64,000 bases of DNA. Origin: a virus. Within the stretch, counting starts at the first letter, position 1. Each line of letters opens with the position of its first letter. Location: the IMG/VR virus record IMGVR_UViG_3300005253_000051, positions 17,506-81,505 of that record, one strand, 5' to 3'. A model generated the notes under the pieces. That model was not told the origin of the DNA and ran no database searches. It saw only the letters and a list, made by a program, of their open reading frames with translations. This document shows positions 2,468 to 55,374 of this stretch, piece after piece. The translations under genes and the position numbers were made by a program.

Positions 2468-2719
2468 TCACCCCGTCGCCAAGTACAACCGGCGGCGCTG
2501 CGATCGTGACATTCGCAGCATCATGACCATGATCCGCGCCCCGGCCCAATCGTATTGGCTCATGCAGCGGTCAAAGCACCACTGCACGTCCTTGAGTTTG
2601 ATGTTCCCGTCGTCCAGTACCACGTGCAGGTTACCGCCCGCCTCGTTCCCGGGTCGCGCGTAGTAGACCTGGATCAACGCCAGCACTTCAGGAACGATCG
2701 GTTTTTCTGGATGCTTCAT
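2468..2719 (-). CDS. Hypothetical phage protein
   Basis: Co-oriented ORF containing GGNLHVVLDDGN. Confidence 0.6.
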   Translation of the reverse strand: MKHPEKPIVPEVLALIQVYYARPGNEAGGNLHVVLDDGNIKLKDVQWCFDRCMSQYDWAGARIMVMMLRMSRSQRRRLYLATG

Positions 2720-5327: not shown

Positions 5328-5863
5328 TGAAGCCTCCTGAACCGTGACATAAATTCTCGCCGCGCGGTTTCCACCGACCACCCTTCGATCCGGTCCTTCA
5401 ACGGCTCGACTCCCTCAAGCACCTCCCACTCCTTCCAACAGGGCTCCATCAGATCACGCTTCTCGGTCGCCAGCATGATGAGATCAGCTCGTTTGATCTC
5501 ATCAACCGCATCCAATCGCTCCATGAGTGATTCCCGAGAAAAAAACTTCTCGAACACAGCGCTCTCAACTCGCTTTTCTATGCGCCGGAAGTCGGGAAGC
5601 ATGTACTTGAGCGGCGCCACCATATCGCCGGTGTAGGCTTCGGCCGCATCGTGCAGTAGCGCGGTGAGCTGGCCGGCTTTGCTACCAGTGATGATATCGC
5701 ACACGTAGCAGGAGTGCTGCGCGACCGAGTAGAACTCGGTGCAGTGACCGTTGAACCGGCACTGCTTTGACAGCGCGTGGGCGATGTCCTCGATGTTGAT
5801 TGCGTCCGGGGACGGGTCCTCGAAATCGAATACCTGCCCGCTTCTAGTTTGAAACCAGGTCAT
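5324..5863 (-). CDS. HD-domain phosphohydrolase (YfbR-like deoxynucleotidase)
   Basis: RFNGH, SVAQHS, LLHDAAEAYTGD and KRAD motifs. Confidence 0.9.
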   Translation of the reverse strand: MTWFQTRSGQVFDFEDPSPDAINIEDIAHALSKQCRFNGHCTEFYSVAQHSCYVCDIITGSKAGQLTALLHDAAEAYTGDMVAPLKYMLPDFRRIEKRVESAVFEKFFSRESLMERLDAVDEIKRADLIMLATEKRDLMEPCWKEWEVLEGVEPLKDRIEGWSVETARREFMSRFRRLQ

Positions 5864-7150: not shown

Positions 7151-7643
7151 TCACGATATCGTGAGCAGTTTTCGACAGCTCCAACACCGTCGTACCCACC
7201 AGCTCGGCCGCTAGCTCGGTGGCGCCGCCGTACGCCGCGGCCAGCGCCGCACTTCTCAGCTCGGCATCGAGCCCCTTGTCGTGCGCCGCAAGACGCACGG
7301 CCCAGCGTACCGCGGCTTGGAATCGCTTCTCCTGTTGCTCACGGTACCGGCCGTAGACGTAGCCTTGCGCGAATTGCGCGGACTCTAAGTATTCTTGGGC
7401 CACGCGGGGATCGTCGCAGAAGATCGCGGACAAGATACGAGCCATGGCGAGATTGCTTCCCAGTCTCCCTGCGCGCTCGTCGATCGCGTCTCGAATTTCG
7501 TCCAGATCAGCTTTTGCGAACTCGGCGCCCGCGGCGTAGTCGAGCACCGCGTTGATGCCGCGTTCAAGTACGAGATCAACGTGTGCGTCGTCGCGTACCA
7601 GCTCAGCAATGAGCCCCAGTTTCATTCTGAACAGGTCTTCCAT
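7143..7643 (-). CDS. Helical protein with a C-terminus related to the Imm5-like paralogs
   Basis: VRWAVRLAAHDKGLDAELRSAALAAAYGGATELAAEL resembles ARWVVRDLS..LDEELRQAAGAAIVAGDEDLARQL. Confidence 0.55.
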   Translation of the reverse strand: MEDLFRMKLGLIAELVRDDAHVDLVLERGINAVLDYAAGAEFAKADLDEIRDAIDERAGRLGSNLAMARILSAIFCDDPRVAQEYLESAQFAQGYVYGRYREQQEKRFQAAVRWAVRLAAHDKGLDAELRSAALAAAYGGATELAAELVGTTVLELSKTAHDIVNA

Positions 7644-8098
7644 CGTGTTACACTCCTTGTGGATGCCACAGACCCCCGGCTGTGTTTTTTAGATAGTTCC
7701 CGGGTGGCTTACTACACCTATGATCAAGTAGAACACCAAGCGTGGAGGGGCCACGATGCGGTACAAGATCTGATTTTGGCCGCCCTGCCGTCGCATCCGG
7801 GTAGGGTGGCTTTTTTCATGATTCGCTATCCTTGAGAATGGCGTCCACCCACGGAGGGGGCTGCTTTTCTGAGTCGGCCGTGGCTTCTTTCCCCCACTCG
7901 AAGCCATCCTGGATCTCTTTATTCAAGAGCACCCACGCTGTATGAGCTGTGCAACAGAGCGACAAGAAAACCTCGCTCAGCACGTGCCCGCTCTTCATGA
8001 GTTTTTCTGCCGTGATATCGGCGCTCTCAGAAACGTTGGCGAGCAATCGCATCGCTCCTTCTAGATCATTTTCAAGATCGAACAGGTCTTCTTCCATT

Positions 8099-8317
8099 TC
8101 ACCCCGTATTCACGATTTTCTGTTTCAGCGTCGAGAACCCAATCCCGAGCTTCTTGGCTGCGCGGTCGCGGTTTCCGTCGCTCTTGGCGAGCACAAAGTT
8201 GGTGTAGAATTTCTCGAACGCATGGCGGGCTCGACGCAGATGCCACGGTCGCTTTATCGAGATCAGGGTATTGATCAGCGTGTCCACTTGGGTTTTGAGC
8301 TGTTTTTCTGGTGTCAT
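8099..8317 (-). CDS. Fis-family helix-turn-helix protein
   Basis: FEKFY...LAKSDGNRDRAAKKLGIGFSTLKQKI is a Fis/NtrC-type HTH. Confidence 0.85.
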   Translation of the reverse strand: MTPEKQLKTQVDTLINTLISIKRPWHLRRARHAFEKFYTNFVLAKSDGNRDRAAKKLGIGFSTLKQKIVNTG

Positions 8318-8367
8318 TTTTTGAGACTTACCACAAAAAGGCTAGAAATTCAACTGTGCCACTCGCG

Positions 8368-9835
8368 GTCGCATCTTGAAAGGCGATGCGCTGCCATTGC
8401 TAGTTCGTCGAGAACTGCGACGAGCCCGTCGCATCTTGAAAGGCGATGCGCTGCCATTGCTACGTCGCGTGCCACGCGCCAGGAGACGAGTTGGTGTGCC
8501 GTCGCATCTTGAAAGGCGATGCGCTGCCATTGCTACCTTCCTCTCGGCCGCGGGGTCGCATCTTGAAAGGCGATGCGCTGCCATTGCTACAGCACGACCA
8601 ACGTCGTTGGTTACGGCACCGACGTGTCGCATCTTGAAAGGCGATGCACTGCCATTGCTACCGCGAGCCATCGGTAAACAGTCGCTCGGCTCACTCCGTC
8701 GCATCTTGAAAGGCGATGCGCTGCCATTGCTACGTGGCCGACGCGGCGAAGATCCTGGGCGTATCCACGTCGCATCTTGAAAGGCGATGCGCTGCCATTG
8801 CTACCTCCTCGATGTAGTCGCATTCGACGACCGAGCACGAAAGGTCGCATCTTGAAAGGCGATGCGCTGCCATTGCTACTAGACGGACCGTCTTCGAGTA
8901 CCCGTGATCCAGTCCGTCGCACCTTGAAAGGCGATGCGCTGCCATTGCTACCCGCGCTGGGATCAATTCCGTGAGGAGATCAGACTCGACGTCGCATCTT
9001 GAAAGGCGATGCGCTGCCATTGCTACAAACCAGCGGCGGCGTTCGCGTTCGCTCCCTCCCCCAGTCGCATCTTGTAAGGCGATGCGCTGCCATTGCTACG
9101 CACCAACAGCGCGACGACTGCGCAGAATGACTGGGAGTCGCATCTTGTAAGGCGATGCGCTGCCATTGCTACAGCATATCCATGGAGGAGCACCCCGAGC
9201 TATCAGCCAAGGTCGCATCTTAAAAGGCGATGCGCTGCCATTGCTACGGATGCGGTGCGTACGGCGATTGCGTGAGACAAAGTGAGTCGCATCTTAAAAG
9301 GCGATGCGCTGCCATTGCTACCGAGCTGGGCGACGGCGAACAGAAAACAATTCTGGTCGTCGCATCTTAAAAGGCGATGCGCTGCCATTGCTACATGCGG
9401 CGCACGCCGGTGAGAACAATGCTTCCGCGACGTCGCATCTTAAAAGGCGATGCGCTGCCATTGCTACAGGCAACCTGGCCCCTAGTGGAGTGGACAATTC
9501 GACTGGTCGCATCTTAAAAGGCGATGCGCTGCCATTGCTACACGATGACATTTTTGCGTGCCCATTCATCTGGTGCGACGTCGCATCTTAAAAGGCGATG
9601 CGCTGCCATTGCTACGGATCGGTGCTCTAGCAATCAGCCCACGCTCTTTCGCGTCGCATCTTAAAAGGCGATGCGCTGCCATTGCTACCGTGAAGCCTAC
9701 TGGCGACAGAGCTATCCGGGCACCGTGTCGCATCTTAAAAGGCGATGCGCTGCCATTGCTACAGCCCTACGTAAACGTGTCGATCTGCGTTGATCTCGCG
9801 TCGCATCTTGAAAGGCGATGCGCTGCCATTGCTAC
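8368..9835 (-). CRISPR. CRISPR array with 21 repeats of 36 bp and 20 spacers (18 of 35-39 bp, plus one of 24 bp and one of 18 bp)
   Basis: Minus-strand repeat GTAGCAATGGCAGCGCATCGCCTTTCAAGATGCGAC with a 3' hairpin CGCATC/GATGCG; unique spacers; co-oriented with the adjacent RuvC gene. Confidence 0.99.
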
Positions 9836-11367
9836 GGCGCCTCTGGATCTTTGTGTTTTTTCGCAAACCTAGGCGTGCTTTTTCGAGTGGTTGGGTTACG
9901 GACGTTTCCGATCGCATACATATTCATCATGTTTTGCGTGCTTACGCGGTCACGATCTTCTACGACACCACAGCCCCCACACGTCACCACGCGCTCGGGC
10001 CCGTAGCTGTTGACGAAGCTGCAAGCCGGGCAATGGTTGGTCGTATCGACCGCACAGACGACGGAAACACCCGTGATGCGGCCAAACACGCGCGTGATCT
10101 CTTCAATCACCTCGCCGGGCGCGGCATGATGACCCTGGCGTCGAGCCGGCTTCGGAAGGCTCGTTTTGTTTTCCTTCATCTTCTTGTGGCAGGAATCCTT
10201 GATGACCGCATGCGCGTAGCGTCGGCGTAGATCACGCAGCCAGACGCGCACGTCGTTGCGCCGCCGGGTGACCGACCGGTTACGACACCCTGCTTCGTAC
10301 TGCCACAAGTGCCGCTCCTTCTTGATCCACTTGGTGTGCTCTCCTGGTTTTGCGACACGTCGAACGCTCAGTGTCGATTTCAGTCGTGCGAAAAGTTTTT
10401 TGTTCGAGAATCCGCAAACGGCCAAAATGACGCTCCAAAAACGCTCTTGTTTTTGTAACTCCACAAGGTTCTGATCACGCGCTGATCGTATCCGATCAGC
10501 TTGATCAGCATGCTTCATCCATTTAGGAGGGAGCACCAACTCGTACTCGGCACCGTCGTCACCACGCGCGTAAGCGATGCGCATGCCGTCGTCGGTCTTA
10601 CGCCAACCGACATCGATAGCGACAGCGCCTCGCTCGGCGTTGTCTTTGCGCTCGGGGATATCGCGGCGCGTGAACTGCACAGACCAGATGACACGATCTG
10701 CGACGTACTTGCGGGCGATCTTGACCCACGTGGCCGTACCTTGAAGGGGACGATGCATCTCGAAAGGTAGTGGCTCGGCCCACACAGGCGCTTGGCCTTT
10801 GGATCCCACACGAAGACGGAGCGTGTAGCGCTGTTGCTTTTTCTTACGAGGATCCGGCGCCGACTTGATCAAGAACATCCGGTCTGGATCCTTGTCGCGC
10901 TGGATTTGGACCGCACACATATCACCCTGGCGCCAGCTGCGGAATTTCACCAGCGAGAAAGATTCAGTCTCTTTCCAAGCCGCCGAAAAGTCTTGTTCGA
11001 TCACAAGATAGGTGCCCCAGTATAGGCCACCTTCGGCCGCTTTCTTGCGGAACGGCTTCACGTCAAGAGGAGGCTCAGAACGGTACTGCTTGCGCAGTGC
11101 CTTGTAATGAGCGCGGCAAACCGGACAGAATTTCTTGCACTCGTGCTTTCGTGGTTTGCGTTTCTTGCTTTCCGCTTTATCACAGGTCGAACAAGATTTT
11201 TTGCACACGTGTGTTGCCGGTGAAGGGGGACGATCCCCGCCCCACATAGTCGTGCGCCTCTCGTTCTCCGCTTCGACGAGACTGTTGTAGTAGACACGGC
11301 CCAGGTTCATTTGGGCACACAAGGTGTCCCCACCGGGGAGTGCTCCGTACTTGTAGACTTTGGTCAT
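9832..11367 (-). CDS. cas12: Compact type V CRISPR effector, Cas12m (V-U1/V-M)-like and TnpB-derived, probably nuclease-inactive
   Basis: N-terminal VYKYG; RuvC-I AIDVGWRKTDDGMRIA; RuvC-II AVIKDS lacking Glu; Zn finger CPAC..CGGC; RuvC-III DRDRVSTQN; directly abuts the CRISPR array. Confidence 0.85.
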   Translation of the reverse strand: MTKVYKYGALPGGDTLCAQMNLGRVYYNSLVEAENERRTTMWGGDRPPSPATHVCKKSCSTCDKAESKKRKPRKHECKKFCPVCRAHYKALRKQYRSEPPLDVKPFRKKAAEGGLYWGTYLVIEQDFSAAWKETESFSLVKFRSWRQGDMCAVQIQRDKDPDRMFLIKSAPDPRKKKQQRYTLRLRVGSKGQAPVWAEPLPFEMHRPLQGTATWVKIARKYVADRVIWSVQFTRRDIPERKDNAERGAVAIDVGWRKTDDGMRIAYARGDDGAEYELVLPPKWMKHADQADRIRSARDQNLVELQKQERFWSVILAVCGFSNKKLFARLKSTLSVRRVAKPGEHTKWIKKERHLWQYEAGCRNRSVTRRRNDVRVWLRDLRRRYAHAVIKDSCHKKMKENKTSLPKPARRQGHHAAPGEVIEEITRVFGRITGVSVVCAVDTTNHCPACSFVNSYGPERVVTCGGCGVVEDRDRVSTQNMMNMYAIGNVRNPTTRKSTPRFAKKHKDPEAP

Positions 11368-11401
11368 GGTTTCTAAGACGTCTAGGCCGTCGAATTATTC
11401 A
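11368..11401 (-). promoter_or_regulatory. Recurrent promoter-like motif upstream of cas12
   Basis: TGAAT-N16-CGTCT-N8-ATG; the same arrangement occurs upstream of the starts at 15457, 15975, 17623, 29916 and 20842. Confidence 0.65.
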
Positions 11402-11613
11402 TCTGAACTGATCTCCTTCCATCGAACAACGACTTCCTCGTCGCCGTCAATTTCCAGGTCCATACCCGACCAATCCCCGCCTCCGGGTACACGCACAAAG
11501 ATCTCCACGCTAGCCGGTAGATCGGTAGCGTAGTGGTCCTTGATGAATTTGATCAGGTCGGCGCGGCCGATTCGAACCGTGTACGTTGATTCTGTTGTCT
11601 TTGTTTTTTCCAT
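11395..11613 (-). CDS. Hypothetical phage protein
   Basis: Co-oriented ORF containing VPGGGDWSGMDL. Confidence 0.6.
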   Translation of the reverse strand: MEKTKTTESTYTVRIGRADLIKFIKDHYATDLPASVEIFVRVPGGGDWSGMDLEIDGDEEVVVRWKEISSDE

Positions 11614-12121
11614 GGGCTTACTCGATCAACCATCCTGCTCGCGCCGGGCACCCATCGCCAACGATGATTTCCCAGCCGTATGTAGGCTCGGGCCGCACCT
11701 CGATAACCTCGGTGCGGTAGTAGCGTTCGCCGGAAAAAAGCAGCCCTCGCACATTCGTGGGCTCTTCTTTGACCACTAGCGCCGTTTGGCCGTCGGCGGG
11801 TGAGTAGGTGGACACGATCATCATTTCGTACGTCCCCAGCGGAAAATGGTTTTCATTTTCGTTGTCTCCTCCAGTAGCGCGTGGCGTGATTGCCGATGCG
11901 CTCCCAGCATTCTTGTGATGGCCCGCGGATGTCTTTGCCGTCGGGTTTCGTCGATGCGATCGCGATCAAGACATCGAGCAACACGCACTCTTCGAGCATG
12001 GTCACCGGCTCGACCCCGAGGCTTCCACAGCGCTGTGACACGTGCTTGATCTGGTTCTCAGGTCCTTGTCGCAGCACGACCGCGAGCGCGACGCCGACAG
12101 CCTTTTCAAGCTCGTGATCGA

Positions 12122-15457: not shown

Positions 15458-15714
15458 GTTCTTGAGACTGATCAGGGCTGCAATCTATTCAACCGGTGGA
15501 AGACGAATTCTTGAACACAAGTCTCTGATAGCCTCGTTGATCTCCATGAATATTTCTGTAATGTCTTGATGATATGCTGCTAGATCAGCCGGCCTTATTT
15601 CAGACCACGTAATCCCACCTAAAATACTAATCGCCATTCCTGCCAATTTGGTGTGAGCCTTCTCGGCTTCAACAGCGCTCATCTTCGTTGACATTTTTTA
15701 GCTCCATACGTTTT

Positions 15715-15780: not shown

Positions 15781-16351
15781 GACTCACCCGTCCGCTGCAA
15801 TTGAGCGGGCCCAGTACTGAGCCGCTCTGTCGGTCGCTGCTTGTGCGACGTCGTAAAGTCCCCGGGTACGAGCGTCGCGAGCAAGCGTCTCCCACTGTCG
15901 CGCGTTGACTCCTAGCGCCATACGCAGGGTGCTCCGGGTCGGACCGTACGTGCAAGTTGAAAACTTGTTGGTCATGCTGGGTAGACGATCCCAGTCCTGA
16001 TCTATTCATCGGATTCGACCGTGCCCACGTCGTGATCCCTTCTTTGGGTGGCATGTTCCGCCGTCCCATTCGCATTTACCACCAAGTACGCGAATCCAGT
16101 TGCCGCACTTAGCGCAGATTTCTGCGCGAGGGTTAGGTGGATAATCGATCATCGCTTCCACGTCTTAATTGGACCACTGCCTGTCATGCCTAGTCGTACC
16201 TCCCACAACATGGGTAACTCGATCTTCTCGAACCATCCGGGGACCGCTTTCTCGGCGGCTTCCTGCGTCCCGTACGCGGCTATAAAGTAGTTCCCTGTGC
16301 CGAAAATGCCGCCAACGCCGCGTCCGTACAGTTTGAATCGCTTTCGAGCCA

Positions 16352-17623: not shown

Positions 17624-17674
17624 GCCCTTGAGACTGATCGAGGCTGCGATCTATTCATCGTGTTAACCTGAAGC

Positions 17675-17893: not shown

Positions 17894-18416
17894 GCTGGCG
17901 AGCCAGATCTTCATCGCCGGCCACGATTGCCGCGCCTGCGGCCTGGCGCAGCTCTTCGTCTAGATCTCGGCCACAACTGAGATCTCGAACTACCCAGCGA
18001 GCAAAAGCGATCTGAATCTCGCTGGAATCGACACCGGCGTCATCGGCGCCGCGGGCGGCATCGGCGGCGTCGGCAGAAGCATCAGCGGCAGCATCAGAAT
18101 CGTAGTTGACGACGTTGGCGGCACCGTAAGCAGCGTAGGCGGCGACGGAAGCAACGGCGGCAGCGGCGATAGTGGCCCAGGCGGAATGAGGGGTCGGGTA
18201 GGGGCCGGCAGGGGCAGCAGAAACAGCGGCTCCAGCTACACGATGAGCATCGGTATCATCTATTTGCTCACCGTTCGCATAACATTCTGCAATCTCGATC
18301 GCAGCTACGAGATTAGATCGTTGATCGCCGTCGTAAAACGGCAGCGCTAGACGCGCACACGCGGCGGCGAACCCAACCGCATTGCACCGGTTGTTCCAAT
18401 CTCGTTCGTAGTTCAT
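17868..18416 (-). CDS. Ala-rich Imm5-like paralog, copy 6
   Basis: MNYERDW..NAVGFAAACARLALPFY and the conserved C-terminus. Confidence 0.8.
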   Translation of the reverse strand: MNYERDWNNRCNAVGFAAACARLALPFYDGDQRSNLVAAIEIAECYANGEQIDDTDAHRVAGAAVSAAPAGPYPTPHSAWATIAAAAVASVAAYAAYGAANVVNYDSDAAADASADAADAARGADDAGVDSSEIQIAFARWVVRDLSCGRDLDEELRQAAGAAIVAGDEDLARQLIEVVCTR

Positions 18417-20842: not shown

Positions 20843-20917
20843 GGTCTTTGTCCTGGTTTGGGATGCGCTGTGAGATAACTCAGACGGAACCCACCTGATC
20901 AAATTCATGAAAAACAG

Positions 20918-29672: not shown

Positions 29673-30691
29673 GTTTTCCTTTTGGTAACTCAAACTCCGA
29701 AGCGGCAGCAAGTTCGGCGCTCAGTTGGCGCGTGTAGACTCGATCCAATTCAGGAAGCCCGCTTTCTAGAGTCATGGCCCACGTCTGAAGTCCGATCACC
29801 AGAGCGATCAGCTCTTGGTGGATCTTGTCGTCTGGCACGAGTGCTAGCCGAGTTGTAATTAGATCTAGGACTTGCTCAACGACCTCTCGTGAGCGATGTA
29901 CTGCTTCGGGTGTCATTGTAGAAAGACGCCTCTACTGGATCGGAAATTCACCATACCTTACTCATGAAACGCTTGCTTGCGATGCGCTTGAGCAGTAGCA
30001 ATAGCTTCTAACCAAACCTCGTTGTTGGACACGGGTACCCAAAGAATGCCTTCATCTGTTTCGACTTTGAAATGCACTTCTGCATTTTGGGTAACTGTAG
30101 CCAGGTCGGTATCGTTTTCTTCATAGGCTTCATGAAGCAAAACCCGAACAGGAAGACCTTCCCGAAGAGCGCCCGACCAAAGCAAGTACCTACCAGGATT
30201 CATATGGCTCAAAACGTGATGCATTAGTTGCTCTTTTCCTTTTCCGACTCCGGCGGCAGCCGCCGCCCCTCAGTGAGTGGTGTACTGCGACGCCTCTACT
30301 GGATACCTAGCTTTTCGCTAACAAGCACCGCCCAGCACTCATGGCATCGTCCCCCGGTCCCTCTCGCCGTAAACGGAAGTCCGCATTCACACGGCGGCGG
30401 CAGGGGCGGAAGATCGTCCGTGTTCAGCACGGACGACACACTCATGCCCAGCACAGGCGGCACCAAGTCTTTCTGAATGGAACGAATCCGACGCCAAATC
30501 ACGGCGCCCAACGTGAGCGTGACCAAGAGTCCCACGATCCGAACACCCGCAGACCACGGGTTGTCGTCTCGAATTTCGGCGGCTACTAGAAAAACGAACT
30601 CGATCAACGAAATCGTGCCGAGAAGCGCTGCCGCTGCGAGAATCTTCTTGACGTTCTTAGACGCCGTTTCACTGAGTCCAGGAATCATTTC

Positions 30692-40211: not shown

Positions 40212-41876
40212 TCAGAAAACGGCCCGCACGATCTCGGACGCCAACGGGATCAACGCCGACAACGCATCCTGAGCGCCGAGTGATTTGGATCGCACGACCA
40301 TGACCGAAGGAAGACGCCCGGCGTCGCTCTGCGCTTTGATCGAGATGACCACAGCTGCTTTTTCTTGGGCATATGGCAAGAGGCGATAGTCCGGCAGACT
40401 GGCCTCTTCGGCGATCTTGTCGGCCACGCTCGAAAACCAATCCTCGAACAGCGTGTATTCGGTGTTCCGTGTCGGCATGCAATCGACGTACAGAATCAGG
40501 GCGGGTTCAGCAGTCTCCCCTGATTTCACGCACGCCTCAGCCATAAGGACCTGCATCTTTAATGCTGCAATCTCCTCTTTCGCTTCCGTAAGAGCTTTCC
40601 ACTCCTCGGGTGGATGATAATCCGGGTGTCCCGGTCGATCCCGAGGAGATGGAACTCCACCCTGAACAGACACCCTGGCCATCGCCCTGGTCATAGCTTG
40701 CTCTTCGGTAAGATCGTGCCAGGCTGTCACCGGTACTTCAAGACCCTCTGCGACGGCTAGCGCCCGTGCCTCTCCCTCAGCCTTCCGCAGCTTCTCCCTG
40801 TCGCGCTCGATCTTGCGCAGCGCCTTTTCCGCCGCGGTCATCTTCTTGCGCCCAGGTTTGCCCTTGGTCGCTTCTTGAATCTGCACGGCTTCCTCGGGCG
40901 TCGTGGTACGTGGGGGTGCATCCGGGGCCAACACACCCGTGGGGACTGGCGTCGGCTCGGGCGCCGGTGGCGCAGGCACCGGGGCGACGGTCATAGGCGG
41001 TGGGCCCGGCAGAGCAGGCACCAAGGCGACGGCAGCAGTCGGCGGGACCGGAAGTGTGGGCGTCGGGGCCGGAAGCGTGGGCGCCGTGCCGACTCCGTTG
41101 CCGGCTCTCATCTCCGCTTGCTTCTTCCGTAGGTCGGTCAAAAACGACATGTTCACTTTTCCTTTGGTTCCGAGTTGCTTGAACGGTGACGGGACGATGA
41201 CTCCACAGCGCGCTCGATGAGGACACCCGCCGTACATGCTGCACGCTGTGATAGTGGGTTTGGTTTGCATGACCTCGGTGCATTTAGCCACTTCGATCAT
41301 TTTTTCGACGATGACAAGACGCTTGTTCCACTCCGCTCGGACGTGTTCACGATCGACGATCGTCTTGACGGGTTTGATGAGTGGCGTCTTGCGCCGCGTG
41401 TGAATGTACGTATGGCCTAATTCGATCTCGCCGACGTAGCCTTCCTGGTAACACCACTCGGCGTAGCTGATGAGTTGTGTGTTCTTCGAAAGCTCGTCCG
41501 GTGTCTTGGCATATCGAAAATCACTCGTGCTCTTGTAGTCGCGCACGCGCATCGGCGCGCTCTCGTATTCGATCAAATCAACGTAGCCGATCCACGGAAG
41601 ATCGCCAACTGTTGAAAGCTGAATTTTCAGCTCTACGAAACAATTGATATCCGGCGTCGGAAGGTACGGCTTGAGCGCTATGACGAATTTTTTGAACTCG
41701 TCGTCGCGGATCCAGCCGTAGAGCAAGTAGTGCTCGATAGCTCCGTGAATGTCGGACCCGAGCTGCATGGCTCGGCTCTTGGGCGAACGAAATCCTGCAA
41801 CCCGCTCGAACCACCAGAGCCTCTCACACCTCTCGAATGTTGTGACCTGTGATGCGCTAACATTTTTCAGCTTCAC
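40212..41876 (-). CDS. PD-(D/E)XK (RecB/Cas4-like) nuclease with a Pro-rich linker and C-terminal extension
   Basis: SASQVTTFERC, GSDIH, GYVD..RDYKS, QL..Y and CSMYGGCPHRARC. Confidence 0.85.
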   Translation of the reverse strand: MKLKNVSASQVTTFERCERLWWFERVAGFRSPKSRAMQLGSDIHGAIEHYLLYGWIRDDEFKKFVIALKPYLPTPDINCFVELKIQLSTVGDLPWIGYVDLIEYESAPMRVRDYKSTSDFRYAKTPDELSKNTQLISYAEWCYQEGYVGEIELGHTYIHTRRKTPLIKPVKTIVDREHVRAEWNKRLVIVEKMIEVAKCTEVMQTKPTITACSMYGGCPHRARCGVIVPSPFKQLGTKGKVNMSFLTDLRKKQAEMRAGNGVGTAPTLPAPTPTLPVPPTAAVALVPALPGPPPMTVAPVPAPPAPEPTPVPTGVLAPDAPPRTTTPEEAVQIQEATKGKPGRKKMTAAEKALRKIERDREKLRKAEGEARALAVAEGLEVPVTAWHDLTEEQAMTRAMARVSVQGGVPSPRDRPGHPDYHPPEEWKALTEAKEEIAALKMQVLMAEACVKSGETAEPALILYVDCMPTRNTEYTLFEDWFSSVADKIAEEASLPDYRLLPYAQEKAAVVISIKAQSDAGRLPSVMVVRSKSLGAQDALSALIPLASEIVRAVF

Positions 41877-44427
41877 CGCCGTAATTCACTTTCATTTGGT
41901 CCAGGTCACCAATTTGATACTCGGTAGCCCACCCAAAAACGTTGTCCGAATCGATCTTGTGAAAATTACACCGTTTTCCATCGACCTTTTTGTTGATCGT
42001 TCCGTTCGACAATTTTTTAAGAGCCGCTCCTATGTATTGAGCGCCGTTTTTGTGTACCGGAGTCTTCATGTAGAGATCCCAGCAGTCAATCGCTCCCTGC
42101 GTGTTAACGAGTAGTTTGCCTGCACCCACCTGAGCCAGCGGGGTTTCTTTCTTGGTGCGGTAGACCTTGGTCAATATCTCCGGTGCGCTCATGAAACGCA
42201 CAAGCCACTCGAACACGTCTTGGTGCGGACCCTGCATCAATAGCCGACGGTGGATCTCAGAGCTTTCCCCCTCGACGATGAATCGCTTGCCGGGGGTGAC
42301 AACGCGATTGTCCCGCAGCCACAGCAGGTGTCTCGCCATGAGATCGCCCACTACCCATCGATCGGTGAGACAGTTTGCCGGGTTGTTCTCGACGAGCCAA
42401 TCTGCCGCGGCTTCGGTTGCGCTCAGGTGAAGGAATCGACGCGACACCGCCTTCATGTCTTCTTGCGTCATATTTTCGCTGCCCATCGATAGCACCGAAT
42501 CATTGTTCGCGCCGATGAGCAGCCGCACGCTGCCACGCACACGGTGATTCGCGAGGTACTTCTCGGTGCTGGTGAAGCTCGTGGCGCCGATGAGCGCACG
42601 TAGTTTGATAGAAATATCCTTGACGCCCTTCGGCAACCCTTCATCGACGTAGATCAGGGGGCACTGAAAGATGTCGGCGTTGAAACCCGATCCTCCGATC
42701 ACGTTTTCGATCAGCGTTGGGCCCCCGTCTTGCCACAGACGGGCGACCCCTTCGGATAAGAGATTTTTCCCTGAACCGGTGGCGCCCGACAAATAGAGCG
42801 CGCAGCACGGCTTGTCGAGAAAGGTCACAACCGCGAGCCAATCGAGAAGTTTTTCGTGGTCGCTAGACAGAAGTAAAAGCCACGTAGCGATGTTGGTATC
42901 GAACCGAGGAGTAAGATTCCGCAAAGGCAAAACGGCGTGATAGAACTCGCGCTCGTCTGTGCTGAAGTAGCTTTCCTGTAGCGTCATATCACCGATGATC
43001 TTCCTGGCGTTGGTGGCGTACTCCTGAAGTATGCGGCCGATGGTTTTCTGCTTCTCAACGTCCTTGTCGTTGATATACGTGAGATCGAAAATTGCCGTCG
43101 TCTCCCATGCATCCCGTGCATAGACGAGCACTTCGTCGCGCGTGAGTGGGTGGCTGTAGCGCTGAGGCTCGTTGAAGTCGAAGACGTGGAAAGTCGTTTT
43201 GTGCTGGATGATCGCATGCTGGCGAACGAACGCGGACTCGTGTTGATCGTCGCTGGGCTCGTTGGGCTCATCTGGTTCATCTGGTCCGATTGATTTGCGC
43301 AGCGCTCTTGCTAGCGCTTGGAGCTGCGGCGATTGCTTCGCGTCTTTGACGCGAAAATCTTCCTGAGCGCGCGCCAGTTTTTCCGCTGCTTTTTCTAACT
43401 CCTCGTCGAGCGTCTTCTCTGCGCCGGGTTCTGCGGCCCAGATCGAAAGCGATGCCTCCAGCACGCGGGCGAGCACGACAGGATCCATCGTGCGCGCGGT
43501 CGGGCTTATCCAGACGATTGTGGAGCAAACCGCCTGCATTACCGCATCGCGATTACCGGAGTCGGCGAAACTCTGTCCCATGAGCACCGCGTTGATCGCC
43601 GCTTTGTTGCGATGCTGTGGATCGAGCACGCGCATTGCGTTGACGACCGGCAGCAAGACGACATCGACCGGTACTGGTCCGGGCGCGGGCGCAGACGGCG
43701 CGGCTGGCGGCGGCACAGGAACAGCGACAGATATCCTGGAGATCCCAGCTGCGATCTCGCTGGGGTCATAACGCACTGCATTATTGAGGTACTCCAGACG
43801 GACAAGAGCGCGGGCGCCGCCTTTGAGATTGTCAAAGCCGGGCACGCGCCATACGCGCTGGATGGTGGCCGTCGAATCTACTTGCCAGCCCTTGGCTGCC
43901 CCCCTGTCGATGAGGGTCTGCTGAAAGCTCTGATAAGCTCTCTGGGCCTGCTTACGATCGGCCGGCGTCCGAAGAATCCAGGGCTTGTGGAACAGCCAGT
44001 AGGGGTGCCAGCCGTACCCGGTGAACACCAACATGCTGGGGTCGGGCCCGCCGTAAAGCAGGTCGAGCGCGGCGTCGTCGGTTGGTGGAAGATTCTGTGC
44101 TGCGTGGGCGCCTGGGATCTCAGGGTGAGCGACGTCGAGATCTCCTGCGAAACCCGGAAGGGCGATGACATCCTGTTTCCCGCCCTGTTGTCGATGACTC
44201 AAACCATCGCAGCGAAGTCCAAGACCAAAGTAGACGTTCTTGGTTTGATTCTCAGCAGTTAACTCGGCTATGTCGTCGTCGGTAGCAACGACCAGATCGA
44301 CTAGCGGCACATGGAGTGATTCCCGGGTTGGATTCAGCCAAATTGTAATATTTCCACATGATGGGCTCCCTGTGGGCCACAGCGCCGAGAAAAACTCTCG
44401 CATCCGCTCCCCCGCATAGCTCGACAA
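41857..44427 (-). CDS. Primase fused to an SF3/D5-like helicase
   Basis: N-terminal GDLD, TGYGWHPYW and RVWRVPG primase motifs; C-terminal GATGSGKN, YVDE and IGANN. Confidence 0.88.
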   Translation of the reverse strand: MSSYAGERMREFFSALWPTGSPSCGNITIWLNPTRESLHVPLVDLVVATDDDIAELTAENQTKNVYFGLGLRCDGLSHRQQGGKQDVIALPGFAGDLDVAHPEIPGAHAAQNLPPTDDAALDLLYGGPDPSMLVFTGYGWHPYWLFHKPWILRTPADRKQAQRAYQSFQQTLIDRGAAKGWQVDSTATIQRVWRVPGFDNLKGGARALVRLEYLNNAVRYDPSEIAAGISRISVAVPVPPPAAPSAPAPGPVPVDVVLLPVVNAMRVLDPQHRNKAAINAVLMGQSFADSGNRDAVMQAVCSTIVWISPTARTMDPVVLARVLEASLSIWAAEPGAEKTLDEELEKAAEKLARAQEDFRVKDAKQSPQLQALARALRKSIGPDEPDEPNEPSDDQHESAFVRQHAIIQHKTTFHVFDFNEPQRYSHPLTRDEVLVYARDAWETTAIFDLTYINDKDVEKQKTIGRILQEYATNARKIIGDMTLQESYFSTDEREFYHAVLPLRNLTPRFDTNIATWLLLLSSDHEKLLDWLAVVTFLDKPCCALYLSGATGSGKNLLSEGVARLWQDGGPTLIENVIGGSGFNADIFQCPLIYVDEGLPKGVKDISIKLRALIGATSFTSTEKYLANHRVRGSVRLLIGANNDSVLSMGSENMTQEDMKAVSRRFLHLSATEAAADWLVENNPANCLTDRWVVGDLMARHLLWLRDNRVVTPGKRFIVEGESSEIHRRLLMQGPHQDVFEWLVRFMSAPEILTKVYRTKKETPLAQVGAGKLLVNTQGAIDCWDLYMKTPVHKNGAQYIGAALKKLSNGTINKKVDGKRCNFHKIDSDNVFGWATEYQIGDLDQMKVNYGGEAEKC

Positions 44428-46872: not shown

Positions 46873-47441
46873 TTGGTACCGTTTCCTCGTGGTTTTGGGT
46901 TAAGTGCGGCGCCTTGGGTTTGCTCGTGGTCGTCGGAGCCAAACACAGAGGCGCGAGTGTCGGCCGAGGTGATGTCGCCTTTGTCGGCGCCGTCTGGGGC
47001 GTATCTTTGTTCCCAAGATGCACAAAGTGCACGATATTCTACGAAATCTCCGGCCATTTTGTTTTTGGCGCACAGACCCATGGTGCCTTGTTGGAGCCGG
47101 ATCATCCCCTCGTCTTGACTTTCGATGAGTTTGAGCGCGCGCTTGGCGTCGAAACTGCGGCCAATTAGCGAGATTCCCTCTTTTTCTAGGTTCAGTCTCG
47201 CTTTGTACTCCAGTTCGCGACTCCTCTTTACGTAGTAAACTTGTTGTGCTTTCGGGCCGTTATCGAAATGGATGCAATTCTGGCAGCGTTTTGAACGCTC
47301 GATTGTCGGCGCCGAGATGAATAGGTCGGGCTTGTCGCTGGCATTCATGGGTCCTATCATAGACATTCTACGGAATCCGACAAGTGGTGGTTGACGGATT
47401 GGTAACAAGCGCTTAGTTTCGAAGGGTATGGCAGCCGTCAA
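46869..47441 (-). CDS. Hypothetical Cys-containing protein
   Basis: CQNCIHF...GLC...CASW. Confidence 0.55.
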   Translation of the reverse strand: MTAAIPFETKRLLPIRQPPLVGFRRMSMIGPMNASDKPDLFISAPTIERSKRCQNCIHFDNGPKAQQVYYVKRSRELEYKARLNLEKEGISLIGRSFDAKRALKLIESQDEGMIRLQQGTMGLCAKNKMAGDFVEYRALCASWEQRYAPDGADKGDITSADTRASVFGSDDHEQTQGAALNPKPRGNGTK

Positions 47442-49269
47442 AAAACAAGTCGGGTTTGATCTCGCTAAGTTGGCAAAGCTCCCTGGGCCTTTCCGGCTGT
47501 ATCTAACGCGACAACTTCCCGGTGGTCAAAAAGAACCGATCCCTCTGCCGCAGACTGAGTGGTCGAACCAAGAGGTAATCGACTTCGAGAACACCGTTGT
47601 CACTCGTATTTCAGGCGGCGGCAATTACGCGGCGCAGCTTACGACTCTCGACGGCGGCGACGGTTTTACTTGGGAGTTTGGTTACAGCGAAAAACTGTAT
47701 CCTTCGATGGTGCCCCCCGGACTCCAGTCCGCGTATGTGCCTCCACCTGTGACTGTCCAAGGAGCCCCAGTGGCTACACCTGCTCCGATCCCGTATGGCC
47801 TTCAGATTCAGAATCAGAATCAGCCACTCGCGCAGCCGCAGGCGCATTTCGCGACGCCGATTTCCCAACTCTCGGGTCCAGCATACATGTATCCCCCTGG
47901 GTACGGACAACCCATTCCACAGTACCCGTATCCGAGTCCCTATCAGCCACCGCGGCAGGCGGCGGACTCGAAAGAGGACGCGCTGAAAAAGGAACTGGAA
48001 CAGATCAGGCTTGCGAATCAGCAAGCGGAGCACCGACGCGAACGAGAGTCTGATGCAGCGCGTCATACCGCTCAAATGACTTCGTTGCGAGAGGAGATCC
48101 GCCGCGCTTCTGAAGCAGTGAAGCAACCGGCTGGCGAGTCGCCGGAGTTGGTCGCACTCAAGAGCCAGAACGCGATGCTTCAAAAGCAGATTGAAGCTCA
48201 GGCACAGGCCCAGCGCGATATGATGACCAAGATAGAGCGGCAACAAGCCGAGTCACGGGATCAGACGGCGCGAGATGTCGCGCAGCGGCAACACGAAGAG
48301 CGCATGCGCCAGATGGAGGAAAACAGCCGCCGTGAGATGCAGGGTCTCAAGGATCAGATGGCGCTGGTACAGGCCAATAATGGCAAACAAGATCCGATGC
48401 TCCCCTTTCTCATGGAATCGCAGAGGCAGGCTGCCGATGTAGCGCGCGAGCAGGCGCGCACCGCAGCCAGTGCGCCTCAGCAGCTCATGAGCATCGTCGA
48501 AGGTGTGCGGCGTAGCTCCGGTGCTGATCAGATCATGACGAACCTCGCGGGTGCTTACGACTCCGTGAACAACATGGTGATGCGCAACGCCGAGATGATG
48601 GGCAACTTCATGGCGCAGAGCCAAGGTTCACCCGTGATGGGGCTTATCGGCGATGCTTTGCATTCCGGCAAAGAAGTGCTAGCCCAGATGGTGACGGCGA
48701 AGTCGAAATCAGAAGAAGCACGGGCTCAGGCCGACGCCGCCCGCGATCAGCAGACTGCCGCGATTGAATACGCACGGGCTAACGCCGCCGCAGCGGCAGC
48801 GGCCCAGAGCAAGGGTAATGGCGTACCTGAAGAGGATCAGGTCATTCAGGCGACTGAGGCGCGACAGGAAGCAGAAGTCGAGGCGGAACAAGCCAATCAA
48901 GAGGTAGCGAATCTAGAGCCGAAGCTTTTCGGCTCTCTGCTCTGGCCCGAGATTGAAAAACTCCGGCAGTGGATTGCCAAGGAAGGGATCGAAAATGTTG
49001 ATCCCCGTGGCATCGTAGTCATGTTGATCCAGGCAGCTGGAAAGATGAAGGAGAATGGGCTCGACGCCCCCGTCCTCTACTTGTTTGAAAATCAGCAGTG
49101 GGCCGAACTGTTCGATCGTGTCATTCCTGATGTGACCGCTGAATTTGCCAGCGAGTGCGTCAAGATCATGTCTGAGATTAGCACTCGGCTTGCGACAGTG
49201 ACCAAGCCCGAAGAAATTGAGGAGATCCTTCGAGGACCCTCCAAAACCCCGGAACAGACAGCGAACTAG
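47428..49269 (+). CDS. Large Pro-rich and coiled-coil protein
   Basis: 613 aa with a Pro/Gln/Tyr region followed by long Gln/Glu/Arg heptads. Confidence 0.8.
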   Translation: MAAVKKQVGFDLAKLAKLPGPFRLYLTRQLPGGQKEPIPLPQTEWSNQEVIDFENTVVTRISGGGNYAAQLTTLDGGDGFTWEFGYSEKLYPSMVPPGLQSAYVPPPVTVQGAPVATPAPIPYGLQIQNQNQPLAQPQAHFATPISQLSGPAYMYPPGYGQPIPQYPYPSPYQPPRQAADSKEDALKKELEQIRLANQQAEHRRERESDAARHTAQMTSLREEIRRASEAVKQPAGESPELVALKSQNAMLQKQIEAQAQAQRDMMTKIERQQAESRDQTARDVAQRQHEERMRQMEENSRREMQGLKDQMALVQANNGKQDPMLPFLMESQRQAADVAREQARTAASAPQQLMSIVEGVRRSSGADQIMTNLAGAYDSVNNMVMRNAEMMGNFMAQSQGSPVMGLIGDALHSGKEVLAQMVTAKSKSEEARAQADAARDQQTAAIEYARANAAAAAAAQSKGNGVPEEDQVIQATEARQEAEVEAEQANQEVANLEPKLFGSLLWPEIEKLRQWIAKEGIENVDPRGIVVMLIQAAGKMKENGLDAPVLYLFENQQWAELFDRVIPDVTAEFASECVKIMSEISTRLATVTKPEEIEEILRGPSKTPEQTAN

Positions 49270-49587
49270 ATGAACTTTTTGCAGGTCATCTACTTCTATC
49301 AGACCGGGTGTCCCGCTTGTGAAGAGATACGCCCCTTGTTGGACAAGGCCGTGGCGCACTACGCGCAATGTGGCGTCGTGGTTCGCTACGTGGACGTGCA
49401 CCACGAAGGGCTTACTGCCGACACGATGCAGGTCCAGGAAACGCCCACGGTCATCGGCACACGCAACCATTCGCCGGTCACTCGCATGATCGGCGCCCAG
49501 AACGCAGATCAACGACTCGGACAGTTATTCACTGAACTACTCAGCGGCGGCTCGTGCGCGGTCCAGCCATGGCGGGGAGACGTGTAG
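49270..49587 (+). CDS. Thioredoxin-like protein
   Basis: FYQTGCPACEEIRP and the cis-Pro motif VQETPT. Confidence 0.85.
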   Translation: MNFLQVIYFYQTGCPACEEIRPLLDKAVAHYAQCGVVVRYVDVHHEGLTADTMQVQETPTVIGTRNHSPVTRMIGAQNADQRLGQLFTELLSGGSCAVQPWRGDV

Positions 49588-49949
49588 AAATGGTCAAGAA
49601 GGTAGAGATCAAAATCGAGCTTGATGGGGGATCGATCTCGATCGACTGCGAGAATCCCAAGGTTATTTTTTCTGCCTGGGATTCAGAATATTTGGGACGT
49701 ATTGTTTTCTCTTTGGTACAGGAGATACAAAGGCACAAAGAGAACGCCGAGGCAAAATCTCGGTCGGAGCGCCGATGAAACGCAAACGCAAACTCAAACT
49801 GTCTAGACTCACCGTTCGTCAACTCGATCGTGTTCGAGCCGGCGGCGGCAGCTTCATCACGCTGTGGTCTGTCATTTGTTCGGGGGGGCGTACTTGCTAC
49901 CGCTTCACCTGGTGTGGCCCTTGTTCTGATCCCGCTCTTGGGTGTTGAG

Positions 49950-50459
49950 CTACTTCCGTTTCCCGTAGCCCTGTGCGACCGCAATGACCGGGGTGATGAC
50001 GGGGAAGAAGCTGCCCAGCGCGAACCAGACGAGCGCCCAACCGACGCTATTGTTGCGCTTGTAACCGTGGTACGCGCTCACGGCGCCCGAAGCGGTGCTC
50101 AGGATTCCCCACGCCCAGGCGTACTTTTTGTAGTAGGGGTAGAGGCCGTTCGCTTTTCCTTTCGATAGCGCTAGGGCGTCTCCGACAACCCTAGCGTCAC
50201 CACCCGCGGCAATGATCACCGCTGCTAGTTTTTCTTGCGTAGGTCTGTCGTATTGACGAAATACCTCTGCTAACCCAGACATTTGGAGCGAAAACGTCGC
50301 CATCTGTTCGGCGAGTTGGACTGCCGTCGCCGTGATTTGTTCGTCCGACAAAACCGCGCCCAGAGTCGCCATCTCGCGAACCGACAGGGTGCCAAGAGAC
50401 GGCATGTCGCGAACGGACAAGGTACCGAGACCGGGACCGGATGTGTTCAGGGTCATCAT
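49950..50459 (-). CDS. Putative virion membrane protein
   Basis: N-terminal LGTLSVR(D/E)M repeats; C-terminal SAYHGYKRNNSVGWALVW transmembrane hairpin. Confidence 0.7.
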   Translation of the reverse strand: MMTLNTSGPGLGTLSVRDMPSLGTLSVREMATLGAVLSDEQITATAVQLAEQMATFSLQMSGLAEVFRQYDRPTQEKLAAVIIAAGGDARVVGDALALSKGKANGLYPYYKKYAWAWGILSTASGAVSAYHGYKRNNSVGWALVWFALGSFFPVITPVIAVAQGYGKRK

Positions 50460-50471
50460 GATCGATTTCTC

Positions 50472-50960
50472 CTAATGGCGGCGGCTGTACCAGTAGCCGC
50501 CAGCGACAGTTACTCCGGCCCCGAGCGTAAGCGCGACGATCCAACCCCAAGGGGTTTTTTTCGCGGCGATGCGTTTGTAGGCATCCCAGTGAGAAAGGAG
50601 CGCACGGGTCTCGTTGACGACTACGAAGAGGGAGCTAAGATCAATACCGATTTGCGGGTAGGCTCCCTGCTTGGTCATCGCGGCGATACCGGCACCGGTT
50701 GTAGGTTTAGAGATTAGGATGAGCGACGTAACGGCGTTGTCGAATCGCTCCGCTTCGGTTTTGGATATCGGGATGTAGTTCTCAGGCGAGTCACCAGGGA
50801 AGAGCCATCCTTCGACGGGACCCAGCAACTCGGGGGAGTATAGGGCCTTGAGCCCCTTGCCCTCGTTGATGAGCCTTTGAAACATGACCAGGAATGCGCG
50901 CACGACGCTCTCGGCGGCGGGGCCTGCCATGGAAGGGGGGGCACTAAGAAAGCTCAGCAT
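50472..50960 (-). CDS. Protein with a C-terminal membrane anchor
   Basis: PWGWIVALTLGAGVTVAGGYWYSRRH. Confidence 0.65.
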   Translation of the reverse strand: MLSFLSAPPSMAGPAAESVVRAFLVMFQRLINEGKGLKALYSPELLGPVEGWLFPGDSPENYIPISKTEAERFDNAVTSLILISKPTTGAGIAAMTKQGAYPQIGIDLSSLFVVVNETRALLSHWDAYKRIAAKKTPWGWIVALTLGAGVTVAGGYWYSRRH

Positions 50961-50964
50961 GGGT

Positions 50965-51279
50965 TTAGATTTCCTTCGTTGCTACATCGAATACGAGAAC
51001 CATAGCTAAAATCGCGGCGGTACCAAGTAGGAGAGGAGGCAAGATCCCCCATCCAAACCCGCGGCCAGCACCGCGGCCAGCGGTCTCTGCGACCGCCTCG
51101 ACGGTTGTCGAGAGTCGTTGAGGAAGCGTGTCAAGCACAGTGACTGCTCGATCCGCAATGGCGACGCCGGATTTGGCGGCTTCACTGAGCACTAGAGCAA
51201 CCTGGAGGAGATCAGCGCCGGTGATGTCGAGCTGTCCCAGAGTGCCTCCGAACGGCACTACGTGTGACGACGTGAGCAC
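50965..51279 (-). CDS. Protein with a C-terminal membrane anchor
   Basis: GGTLGQ at the N-terminus and a hydrophobic C-terminus. Confidence 0.6.
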   Translation of the reverse strand: MLTSSHVVPFGGTLGQLDITGADLLQVALVLSEAAKSGVAIADRAVTVLDTLPQRLSTTVEAVAETAGRGAGRGFGWGILPPLLLGTAAILAMVLVFDVATKEI

Positions 51280-51282
51280 AGG

Positions 51283-51591
51283 TCATTTCCACGAGCAGCG
51301 GGCAGTTTTGGCGAGTCGCTTGGCTTTGTTGGCGGCGGCGCGGTATTTGCGGGCGGCGCTTGGTTTGCCGGCGCGCTCGGCTACATCAGCCATTTGTTCC
51401 CCGCGGCGGAAGGCAGATAGGAGTCCCATACAGTCGGGCACGCACGGGCCACGATAAGCCATGACCGGAAATTTCAGCTTGCCAGGCATCAGAAAGGCCC
51501 TGGTTCCGCAGCGCTTTCTCAGATCGCGGCGCTGAAATTTGCCTCGTGGCATCCGCTTAGACCAGCCTATTCGGGTTACTCGTCGTGCCAT
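51283..51591 (-). CDS. Highly basic protein
   Basis: MARRVTRIGWSKRMPRG...CGTRAFL..KFPV; Arg/Lys-rich. Confidence 0.65.
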   Translation of the reverse strand: MARRVTRIGWSKRMPRGKFQRRDLRKRCGTRAFLMPGKLKFPVMAYRGPCVPDCMGLLSAFRRGEQMADVAERAGKPSAARKYRAAANKAKRLAKTARCSWK

Positions 51592-52574: not shown

Positions 52575-52588
52575 CTGAGGGATAGAAC

Positions 52589-55229: not shown

Positions 55230-55374
55230 GCAAGTATGTCCTTCAGGGAGCCAATGGCAGCGAGATGCCTTCAAAATCTCGACTCTGTCTACAATCCAGT
55301 GCTATCACACGGATCTAGACGCCGACTGTGTTCTTGGTCTAAGCTAAGTCCTATACCTCCAAGGAGAAACCCTC

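Follow-up and report, generated by a model that had tools for sequence, protein, structure and literature searches.

A virus-borne, probably non-cutting type V-M (Cas12m) module with a compact effector whose gene ends inside its own CRISPR array

We analysed a 64,000-nucleotide (nt) stretch of viral DNA (hereafter the window), bases 17506-81505 of the 81,505-bp IMG/VR record IMGVR_UViG_3300005253_000051, which has direct terminal repeats and is rated 100 for completeness by CheckV; DNA of this phage was found in marine-sediment metagenome runs from two studies, none of them listed as an RNA run. On its minus strand the window carries a cas12m-like gene for a protein of 511 amino acids (aa) (9832..11367), identified from its open reading frame (ORF) and translation and supported by PADLOC, by solved Cas12m structures and by conservation across a clade of relatives. 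It is followed directly by a CRISPR array (8368..9835, minus), whose 21 repeats of 36 nt enclose 20 spacers, with the gene-strand repeat GTAGCAATGGCAGCGCATCGCCTTTCAAGATGCGAC. An earlier, sequence-only reading of this DNA had described an ORF of 511 aa followed by a 21-repeat array in a viral setting; both elements were located at these positions, and the complete IMG/VR virus record bears out the setting. The first, gene-proximal repeat (9800..9835, minus) holds the cas12m stop codon as its bases 2-4: the TAG lies at 9834-9832, so that gene and array overlap by four bases and no leader stands between them. On the other side of the gene, only 27 nt separate the stop of the upstream gene from the cas12m start codon.

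Within the array, 18 of the 20 spacers are 35-39 nt long. The other two, near the distal end, measure 24 and 18 nt, and in the last repeat (8368..8403, minus) C replaces G as the first base; the distal end of the array therefore looks old and worn. The common repeat variants are confined to the hairpin loop (TTTCAA, TTACAA and TTTTAA on the minus strand) and are grouped in blocks along the array.

The protein was matched best by the PADLOC model Cas12u1 (E 1.2e-50; residues 2-482 against positions 3-528 of the 533 in the model), a label under which Cas12m was formerly known. Among solved structures, the single sequence matched Cas12m alone (23vw_A, E 1.3e-15; Cas12m2, E 4e-9), and a profile of 52 relatives placed Cas12m proteins in all of its top three positions (23vw_A, E 1e-40, positions 8-470 against 24-576; Cas12m2, E 1e-20; UnCas12m4a, E 3e-15). 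The Cas12m-like identity proposed from the sequence alone thus stood up, and in the profile search against related families, a kind of check that the same reading had named, Cas12m again came out best, with solved TnpB reaching only E 0.036. The sole Pfam signal was the zinc ribbon PF07282 (E 6.6e-4, under its cut-off), and no NCBIfam family was matched by the protein. Solved OrfB_Zn_ribbon and IS605 OrfB chains, presumably Cas12f, were matched at E of about 0.04, over the zinc ribbon only.

A HMMER alignment to Cas12m2 set D252, K390 and D473 opposite His317, Asp485 and Asp579, the residues given for the H-D-D triad of that protein in the text consulted (Omura 2023, PMC10442227); in 23vw_A the residue opposite K390 is Glu. 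Judged by these alignments, the RuvC triad of the 511-aa protein is D-K-D. The motifs lie where the sequence-only reading had placed them (AIDVGWR at 250-256, VIKDS at 388-392 and EDRDRV at 470-475), and its lysine at RuvC-II was confirmed as K390. Across the 52 relatives, which share 42-55% identity with the 511-aa protein, 26 columns are invariant. D252, D471 and D473 are each present in 52/52 and K390 in 51/52 (one Ser), as are the zinc-ribbon cysteines C446, C449, C463 and C466 in 52/52; the residue following K390 varies (D in 30, N in 14, K in 5, others in the rest).

To place the protein among its relatives, we used a word-indexed search, which returned 87 of them (51 at 38-51% identity and 404-583 aa; 36 at 23-36% identity and 465-731 aa), and an exhaustive search, which gave 2321 matches at E <=1e-3 and 76 at E <=1e-30, with a gap in E-value among its full-length matches from 1e-58 to 1e-39. 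In a FastTree tree of 222 of 226 proteins over 569 trimmed columns, from which fragments shorter than 380 aa had been dropped (P0094, P0096, P0097 and P0130), 57 sequences formed a monophyletic compact clade (FastTree support 0.997). Its triads are D-K-D in 56 of the 57 and D-S-D in one, P0052, a truncated sequence of 404 aa. The sister of the clade is P0100 (521 aa, D-E-R; support 0.999), and the next branch outside P0100 is a D-E-D protein of 584 aa; P0095, provisionally grouped with the clade, has D-E-D and falls outside it. The other 164 sequences of the tree include 127 with D-E-D, 8 with N-D-D, 6 with N-E-D and 3 with D-K-D. Since K390 is kept across the clade, lysine at RuvC-II is a derived and fixed state rather than decay confined to one genome.

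Members of the compact clade average 501.5 aa, as against 589.4 aa for the sequences outside it, and the shortening is concentrated in a few places: relative to 23vw_A, the clade is without about 40 residues of the helical REC insertion, about 10 in WED and about 24 in the RuvC helical insertion. The helical REC insertion corresponds to the element described as the 'Roof' in GoCas12m (PMC11013384) and as the REC2 coiled coil in Cas12m2 (PMC10442227) in the text available of those papers; in type V-M effectors it is a long coiled coil by which the end of the heteroduplex distal to the protospacer-adjacent motif (PAM) is read. At its shortened tip, His52 (46/52), Cys81 (49/52), Cys84 (49/52) and His87 (32/52) make up a Cys/His motif that looks like a zinc knuckle, and the corresponding loop of the 511-aa protein has six Cys. 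The ESM Atlas model of the protein has modest confidence (pTM 0.59), and the structural cluster closest to it (TM 0.79) is a family of 561 aa, in which 87% of the members with a taxon record are viral. IMG/VR holds 33 loci encoding relatives, 28 of them more distant and five of the compact clade, and these five represent three distinct sequences (L001/L002, L003 and L004/L005); a single-protein scan of IMG/VR found nothing. A two-peptide-pattern scan of prokaryote genomes, made with the clade alignment, gave no confirmed relative, which is not proof of absence.

The repeat was then compared with a known Cas12m guide RNA. In the CRISPR RNA (crRNA) of PmCas12m, the available text of a 2026 preprint gives pairs, counted from the 3' end of the repeat, between -28..-26 and -15..-17 and between -23..-20 and -3..-6; the window repeat fits both stems of this pseudoknot in the same register (GGC/GCC and CGCAU/AUGCG). 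Covariation was counted on 15 aligned repeats, one each from 14 distinct viral loci plus the window repeat, with a pseudoknot structure that had been chosen with the window repeat in view. Paired cells amounted to 89.2% versus 64.6% in shuffles, and 31 cells versus 11 in shuffles were changed on both sides (0/500 shuffles as high in either count), whereas sliding the pairing partners by 1 to 3 columns left at most 42.5% paired. In stem II, 97.3% of the cells are paired, with covariation at each of the five pairs; in stem I, 75.6% are paired, with covariation at two of three pairs. Three G-U cells are compatible with the strand of the gene only, and repeats read in the sense of the gene end in GAC in 14/15, that of L018 ending in CAC. 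A covariance model (R1) built from the 15 repeats with stem II only, and run over the whole genome with filters off, scored all 21 array repeats at 32.9-40.4 bits; Rfam held no family matching the repeat at E up to 1. These in silico results indicate that the repeat would form a 5' handle with a Cas12m-type pseudoknot.

A promoter-like motif, TGAAT-N17-GTCT (11376..11401, minus), ends 8 nt before the cas12m ATG, its first box overlapping the stop of the upstream gene. The same motif lies just 5' of the starts at 8317, 15457, 15975, 17623 and 29916 (minus), and the window contains 9 matches versus 1.96 expected (0/100 shuffles reach 9). The motif, allowing spacings of N17-20, resembles promoters of the extracytoplasmic-function (ECF) sigma type. 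Minus-strand sites of this form lie at 8324-8352, 11376-11401, 15465-15491, 15983-16008, 17631-17657, 20882-20907 and 29924-29950; because such sites end so close to the start codons, within a few bases, almost no leader would be left on the transcripts. No sigma-70-type promoter was found in 7900-11700, nor any terminator-like site there on the strand of the gene, which makes a single transcript of gene plus array the simplest reading, and we infer that one transcript would span cas12m and the array.

The overlap of gene and array is not peculiar to this phage. The stop codon lies 27 nt deep inside the first repeat in L001, 27 nt in L003, 7 nt in L004 and 4 nt in the window, and a stop codon inside the first repeat is thus a feature of the compact clade in all four distinct loci. 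Among the 33 viral loci, a k-mer script detected a downstream array in 24, and some of the remaining nine end near the gene; in the 15 distant loci taken for measurement, the gap from stop to array was 11-193 nt in 13 and 683 nt in one, while frame extension overran the array in L023, which gave no gap value. Furthermore, 24/52 clade proteins end in peptides that the repeat sequence AATGCCAGCGC.. can encode in two frames, as found by regular expression (..(E/Q)C(Q/P)xxGL in 18 and ..NAS.. in 6), and several more end in near variants. In a literature search judged by titles, no paper described a cas gene ending inside its own array. In L004/L005, a second short run of the same repeat (7369-7650) follows a small ORF about 400 nt past the main array, and two of its adjoining units have an identical spacer.

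Neither Cas1 nor Cas2 was matched anywhere in the complete 81.5-kb record (the Cas4 family itself was not used as a query), so that what had been noted for the window, the lack of cas1 and cas2, holds for the entire record. A PD-(D/E)XK exonuclease (40212-41876) matched a PHROG annotated 'CRISPR/Cas system associated' weakly (E 1.2e-4), and the cas12m ORF is the one gene of the whole record with a TNB zinc-ribbon match. Cas1 was likewise not found in 10/10 other viral records carrying relatives; in six of these, completeness is 90% or more. Beyond the array, the 81.5-kb genome matched the repeat over 11-13 nt at most, whichever strand was taken (best E 0.41); no anti-repeat of a trans-activating crRNA (tracrRNA) is therefore visible, and the sequence-only reading had noted no room for an adjacent one.

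Natural variants of the cassette were available for comparison. A metagenome contig of 2914 nt (L034), 97-98% identical to the phage, has a cas12m coding sequence with 0/1536 nt different from the window and, over the 400 nt just upstream, 20 mismatches. The first spacer of its array is absent from the window, and the one after it equals the second spacer of the window. In sequencing run X5, a contig of depth 2 joins 8927 to 9076, having two units fewer, and past the repeat at 9137-9172, towards the gene, its letters are unlike those of the window. In both cases the distal spacers are common and the gene-proximal ones different, which is the pattern expected if spacers enter beside the gene; we treat this as a lead from two cases, and recombination between arrays would suit the blocks of repeat variants just as well. 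The whole cassette of promoter, gene and array (8356..11407) is missing from one contig of run X2 (depth 21.3), which joins 8355 to 11408 with 12 other letters between and a far side of only 30 nt, and so skips exactly these three elements. At E 1e-5, no flank genes of the compact-clade loci are common with this phage; the cassette thus sits in unrelated viruses. In run X4, the flank upstream of the cassette (11527-11753) shows many single-base differences versus two in cas12m. The contrast is the same in X4 and L034, and may reflect a recent transfer of the cassette among variants of related phages.

The spacers were searched for their targets at several levels. The whole array gave no blastn match in 50,697 phage records and 72,556 plasmid records, and no array spacer matched the genome of the phage itself beyond 13 nt. 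When 251 spacers (20 from the window and 231 from viral loci) were compared with the genome of this phage and with the 33 loci, near-identical locus pairs being set aside, only partial matches of at most 18/19 nt were obtained; exact 26-nt seeds of 3/20 window spacers and of the first spacer of L034 were not found in IMG/VR. The repeat itself, searched elsewhere, occurred 0 times in IMG/VR, 0 times in species-representative genomes and in one metagenome contig, L034.

On these results, we consider the locus to be, probably, a virus-carried type V-M (Cas12m) module from a compact sub-lineage, which would bind DNA without cutting it, nuclease activity having presumably been lost. Of the sequence-only reading, the nuclease-dead effector and the repressor aimed at competing elements or host genes stay at the level of proposals. 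A phage-type promoter would probably drive a single transcript, composed of the cas12m message and a 3' precursor of the crRNAs (pre-crRNA), and either the Cas12m protein or a host RNase would cut it to crRNAs, by analogy with relatives. Each crRNA would consist of a 5' pseudoknot handle of about 30 nt derived from the repeat and a 3' guide, with no need of a tracrRNA. The complex would bind double-stranded DNA (dsDNA) flanked by a PAM, which in type V-M lies 5' and is rich in T or C, and would block transcription or replication without cutting; the targets would most likely be rival mobile elements. In the RuvC pocket, where Lys replaces the metal-bridging Glu, D252 and D473 would hold at most one metal ion, gripping the displaced strand, and Lys390 could contact phosphate. 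As described in the available text, Cas12m proteins with D-E-D, H-D-D and N-D-D sites all bind dsDNA and none cuts it (Bigelyte 2024, PMC11013384), one Mg sits in the H-D-D site of Cas12m2, which binds the non-target strand (PMC10442227), and a positively charged pocket was suggested to be able to bind the non-target strand directly (Omura 2023, PMC10442227).

Several observations weigh against this interpretation. The REC coiled-coil insertion is described as crucial for Cas12m2 in the text seen of Omura 2023 (PMC10442227), and here it lacks about 40 residues. The PADLOC search also gave a Cas12f-labelled model whose score nearly equals that of Cas12u1 (E 6.3e-49), so that PADLOC labels alone cannot separate V-M from V-F. 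Position 399 has an acidic residue in 43/52, and E419 is conserved in 90% of the clade or more; an acidic residue from elsewhere, with these two as candidates, could conceivably reach the RuvC-II position. The invariance of D252, D471 and D473 could equally mean that the pocket still catalyses something. For none of the 20 spacers was a protospacer found in the searches above, which weakens the case for a targeting of rival elements, and the cassette-less joint, from a single contig, is a modest observation.

Two acidic residues and a lysine with one metal ion serve catalysis in PD-(D/E)XK nucleases, and these provide a model for an active D-K-D pocket, capable of one-metal nicking or cutting of DNA or RNA or of processing its own pre-crRNA. 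The fixation of single residues (D252, D471 and D473 in 52/52, K390 in 51/52) looks like a selected function and not like decay. Altered but conserved sites in TnpB branches have been argued to be able to keep nuclease activity (Altae-Tran 2023), and the processing route of Cas12m pre-crRNA is not established in the literature (PMC11013384). The same body of work, to the extent that its text was available, tells against such activity: no tested Cas12m cut dsDNA, those with an intact D-E-D included (PMC11013384), reverting Cas12m2 from H-D-D to D-E-D did not restore cutting (PMC10442227), and RuvC-site mutants of Cas12m2 and MsCas12m still process pre-crRNA (PMC11013384). We therefore regard a catalytic D-K-D pocket as unlikely.

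Repeats also occur away from the array. The R1 search located a lone repeat-like element on the plus strand at 55248..55283, oriented like the genes around it (34.1 bits, E 3.6e-5), and a lone Cas12m-type repeat outside the window, at positions 5359-5394 of the genome (G000:C1, locus L036; minus; 31.2 bits, E 1.5e-4); a weak repeat-like element at 2475..2510 (minus; 19.2 bits, E 0.06) may be chance. In both clear elements CAATGGCAGCG, the partners of stem I and the CGAC at the 3' end are retained, and stem II is changed on both sides. A stop at 55229 and a start at 55375, the latter preceded by AAGGAG, flank the element at 55248; the copy at 5359-5394 has an intact pseudoknot, in which one G-U pair fits the minus strand alone, and stands about 130 nt upstream of the start at 5228. 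The segment that follows the 55248 repeat is a partial copy of the last codons of two upstream paralogous genes, so a guide and a duplication are indistinguishable there. The sequence GTCTACAATCC has three exact copies on the plus strand (54220-54230, 55182-55192 and 55287-55297; 0.66 expected): two encode VYNP where the C-terminal ends of two adjacent genes, 53653-54267 and 54264-55229, resemble each other, and the third is in the partial segment copy right after the lone repeat. In the record G001, which carries a compact-clade gene (L001), 11/15 R1 matches lie outside the four-repeat main array, and dispersed repeats thus recur in the compact lineage. Examples of these matches are 4-39, 2635-2670, 10244-11172, 18356-18391 and 42585-43135.

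Such elements invite the idea that the module mainly regulates genes of the phage or of its host, the lone repeats being fixed guides or docking sites for Cas12m on phage messages. The intact fold of the two lone repeats, their sense orientation with respect to local genes and the prevalence of dispersed matches in G001 speak for it. The array spacers, however, do not match the phage genome beyond 13 nt, and the guide that would follow the 55248 repeat matches elsewhere over 13 nt only (E 0.03), in a paralogous coding segment, which duplication explains equally. An array of 20 spacers that differs between variants fits defence or competition better, and regulation as the main role appears to us as improbable as an active pocket.

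We hold it very improbable that the locus is inert, the relic of a TnpB or Cas12 gene in decay next to a fossil array: the loss of the catalytic Glu, the 24- and 18-nt distal spacers with the altered last repeat and the lack of detected targets would fit it, but the ORF is intact, 26 columns are invariant across the 52 relatives, the protein is identical in L034, the repeat stems covary, the gene-proximal spacer differs between variants and a phage-type promoter motif stands 5' of the gene.

The probable V-M module can thus be set against characterised systems. With the Cas12m proteins MmCas12m2 (8HHL/8HIO), GoCas12m, PmCas12m and the 577-aa 23vw it has in common a split RuvC, GWR at motif I and a CxxC..CxxC ribbon, together with a 36-nt repeat with the two-stem pseudoknot in the same register, an array directly downstream and the absence of both tracrRNA and adaptation genes; in this family, as far as the sources available to us go, altered RuvC triads are typical. 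It differs from them in its length (511 aa versus 577-614 aa), in the stop inside the first repeat, in being carried by a complete virus genome, in the D-K-D triad and in a REC insertion about 40 residues shorter with a conserved His/Cys-x-x-Cys/His tip. The triads named for Cas12m in the literature available to us are HEK/HQK, HDD, DED, NED and DND (PMC10442227) and NDD (PMC11013384); D-K-D is not among them, although this triad or the clade may appear in tables that supplement Wu 2022, Bigelyte 2024 or Altae-Tran 2023.

The closest described case is MvCas12m of the myxophage MV-1 (bioRxiv 10.64898/2026.09.14.751636). In the portion of the preprint available, it is likewise encoded by a phage beside an array, without cas1, cas2, cas4 (a family not used as a query here) or tracrRNA, and no protospacers were found for it; it differs in having 610 aa, an intact D-E-D and 8 spacers. 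The same portion claims it as the first phage Cas12m. The 33 IMG/VR loci with relatives imply that phage Cas12m is far commoner than this claim suggests: Cas12m-like systems are common in viruses, and the 2026 phage case is no one-off. According to the parts seen of two further sources, V-M systems on plasmids and in some prophages had already been recorded in a review, and effectors of a landfill virome were placed with Cas12m/V-U1 (PMC12607003).

Other families were considered as well. TnpB has the core of RuvC and zinc ribbon in common with the protein, the TnpB-like L79 matching at E 8.5e-10 and ISDra2 TnpB at E 0.036, over the C-terminal part only. TnpB (IS200/IS605), which goes with one long omega-RNA at the 3' end, with transposon ends and often with a TnpA gene but not with a spacer array, was rejected on account of the true array with 20 different spacers and of the E of only 0.036 for solved TnpB; no long omega-RNA region was found. 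Cas12f (V-F) was rejected for want of an anti-repeat for the tracrRNA that it requires, despite the E 6.3e-49 of the model with its label. Cas12j (CasPhi) and Cas12l (Cas-lambda) of huge phages are compact type V effectors that use crRNA only and have no adaptation genes; they are active nucleases of about 700-800 aa. Cas_phi3 matched the family profile at only E 0.059, over the zinc ribbon alone.

Phage Cas12m as a kind is thus already known. What we have not found described in the literature consulted is the compact clade with its fixed RuvC-II lysine and its shortened Cys/His REC tip, the stop inside the first repeat, and the change of spacer beside an identical gene in a virus without adaptation genes. 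A wider scheme, which we hold to be possible but rather doubtful as a whole, would join these features: in a largely virus-borne lineage, effector and array would have become fused, the last cas12m codons serving as leader; a virus without Cas1 and Cas2 would gain gene-proximal spacers through a host integrase acting in trans or through recombination between arrays on co-infection; crRNA processing would trim the cas12m message; and the lone repeats would extend Cas12m to phage transcripts or promoters. The fusion, together with the proximal spacer change beside an identical gene, raises the question of how an array without leader and adaptation genes gains spacers.

At about 500 aa, the compact clade is about 90 residues below the Cas12m proteins now engineered as compact DNA binders, and, provided that it binds DNA, a natural protein this small that has lost the catalytic Glu would make a useful scaffold. 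The fixed RuvC-II lysine moreover offers a clean natural test of the role of the Cas12m pocket once cutting has been lost. In the part of the PmCas12m 2026 preprint available to us, Cas12m proteins of the engineered line have 596-601 aa, and one engineered protein has 581 aa.

Two adjacent array spacers translate into helix-turn-helix-like peptides (GVSRATVYRWLA and VADAAKILGVS), which is a lead only; a regular-expression search found the motif of the two peptides in no phage gene. Directly downstream of the array, a gene for 72 aa (8099-8317, minus) shows a weak match to a helix-turn-helix PHROG (E 0.0036), has its own copy of the promoter-like motif and is retained in the cassette-less variant.

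Farther along the window, a plus-strand block (47428-63642) contains 12 ORFs without a PHROG family and, among these, no capsid, portal, terminase or tail gene, so the virion module appears unlike those of known phages. The gene content of the window includes a family A DNA polymerase, a primase-helicase-like protein, a helicase, the PD-(D/E)XK exonuclease and ThyX, and the window also encodes a MoxR-type ATPase with a VWA partner.

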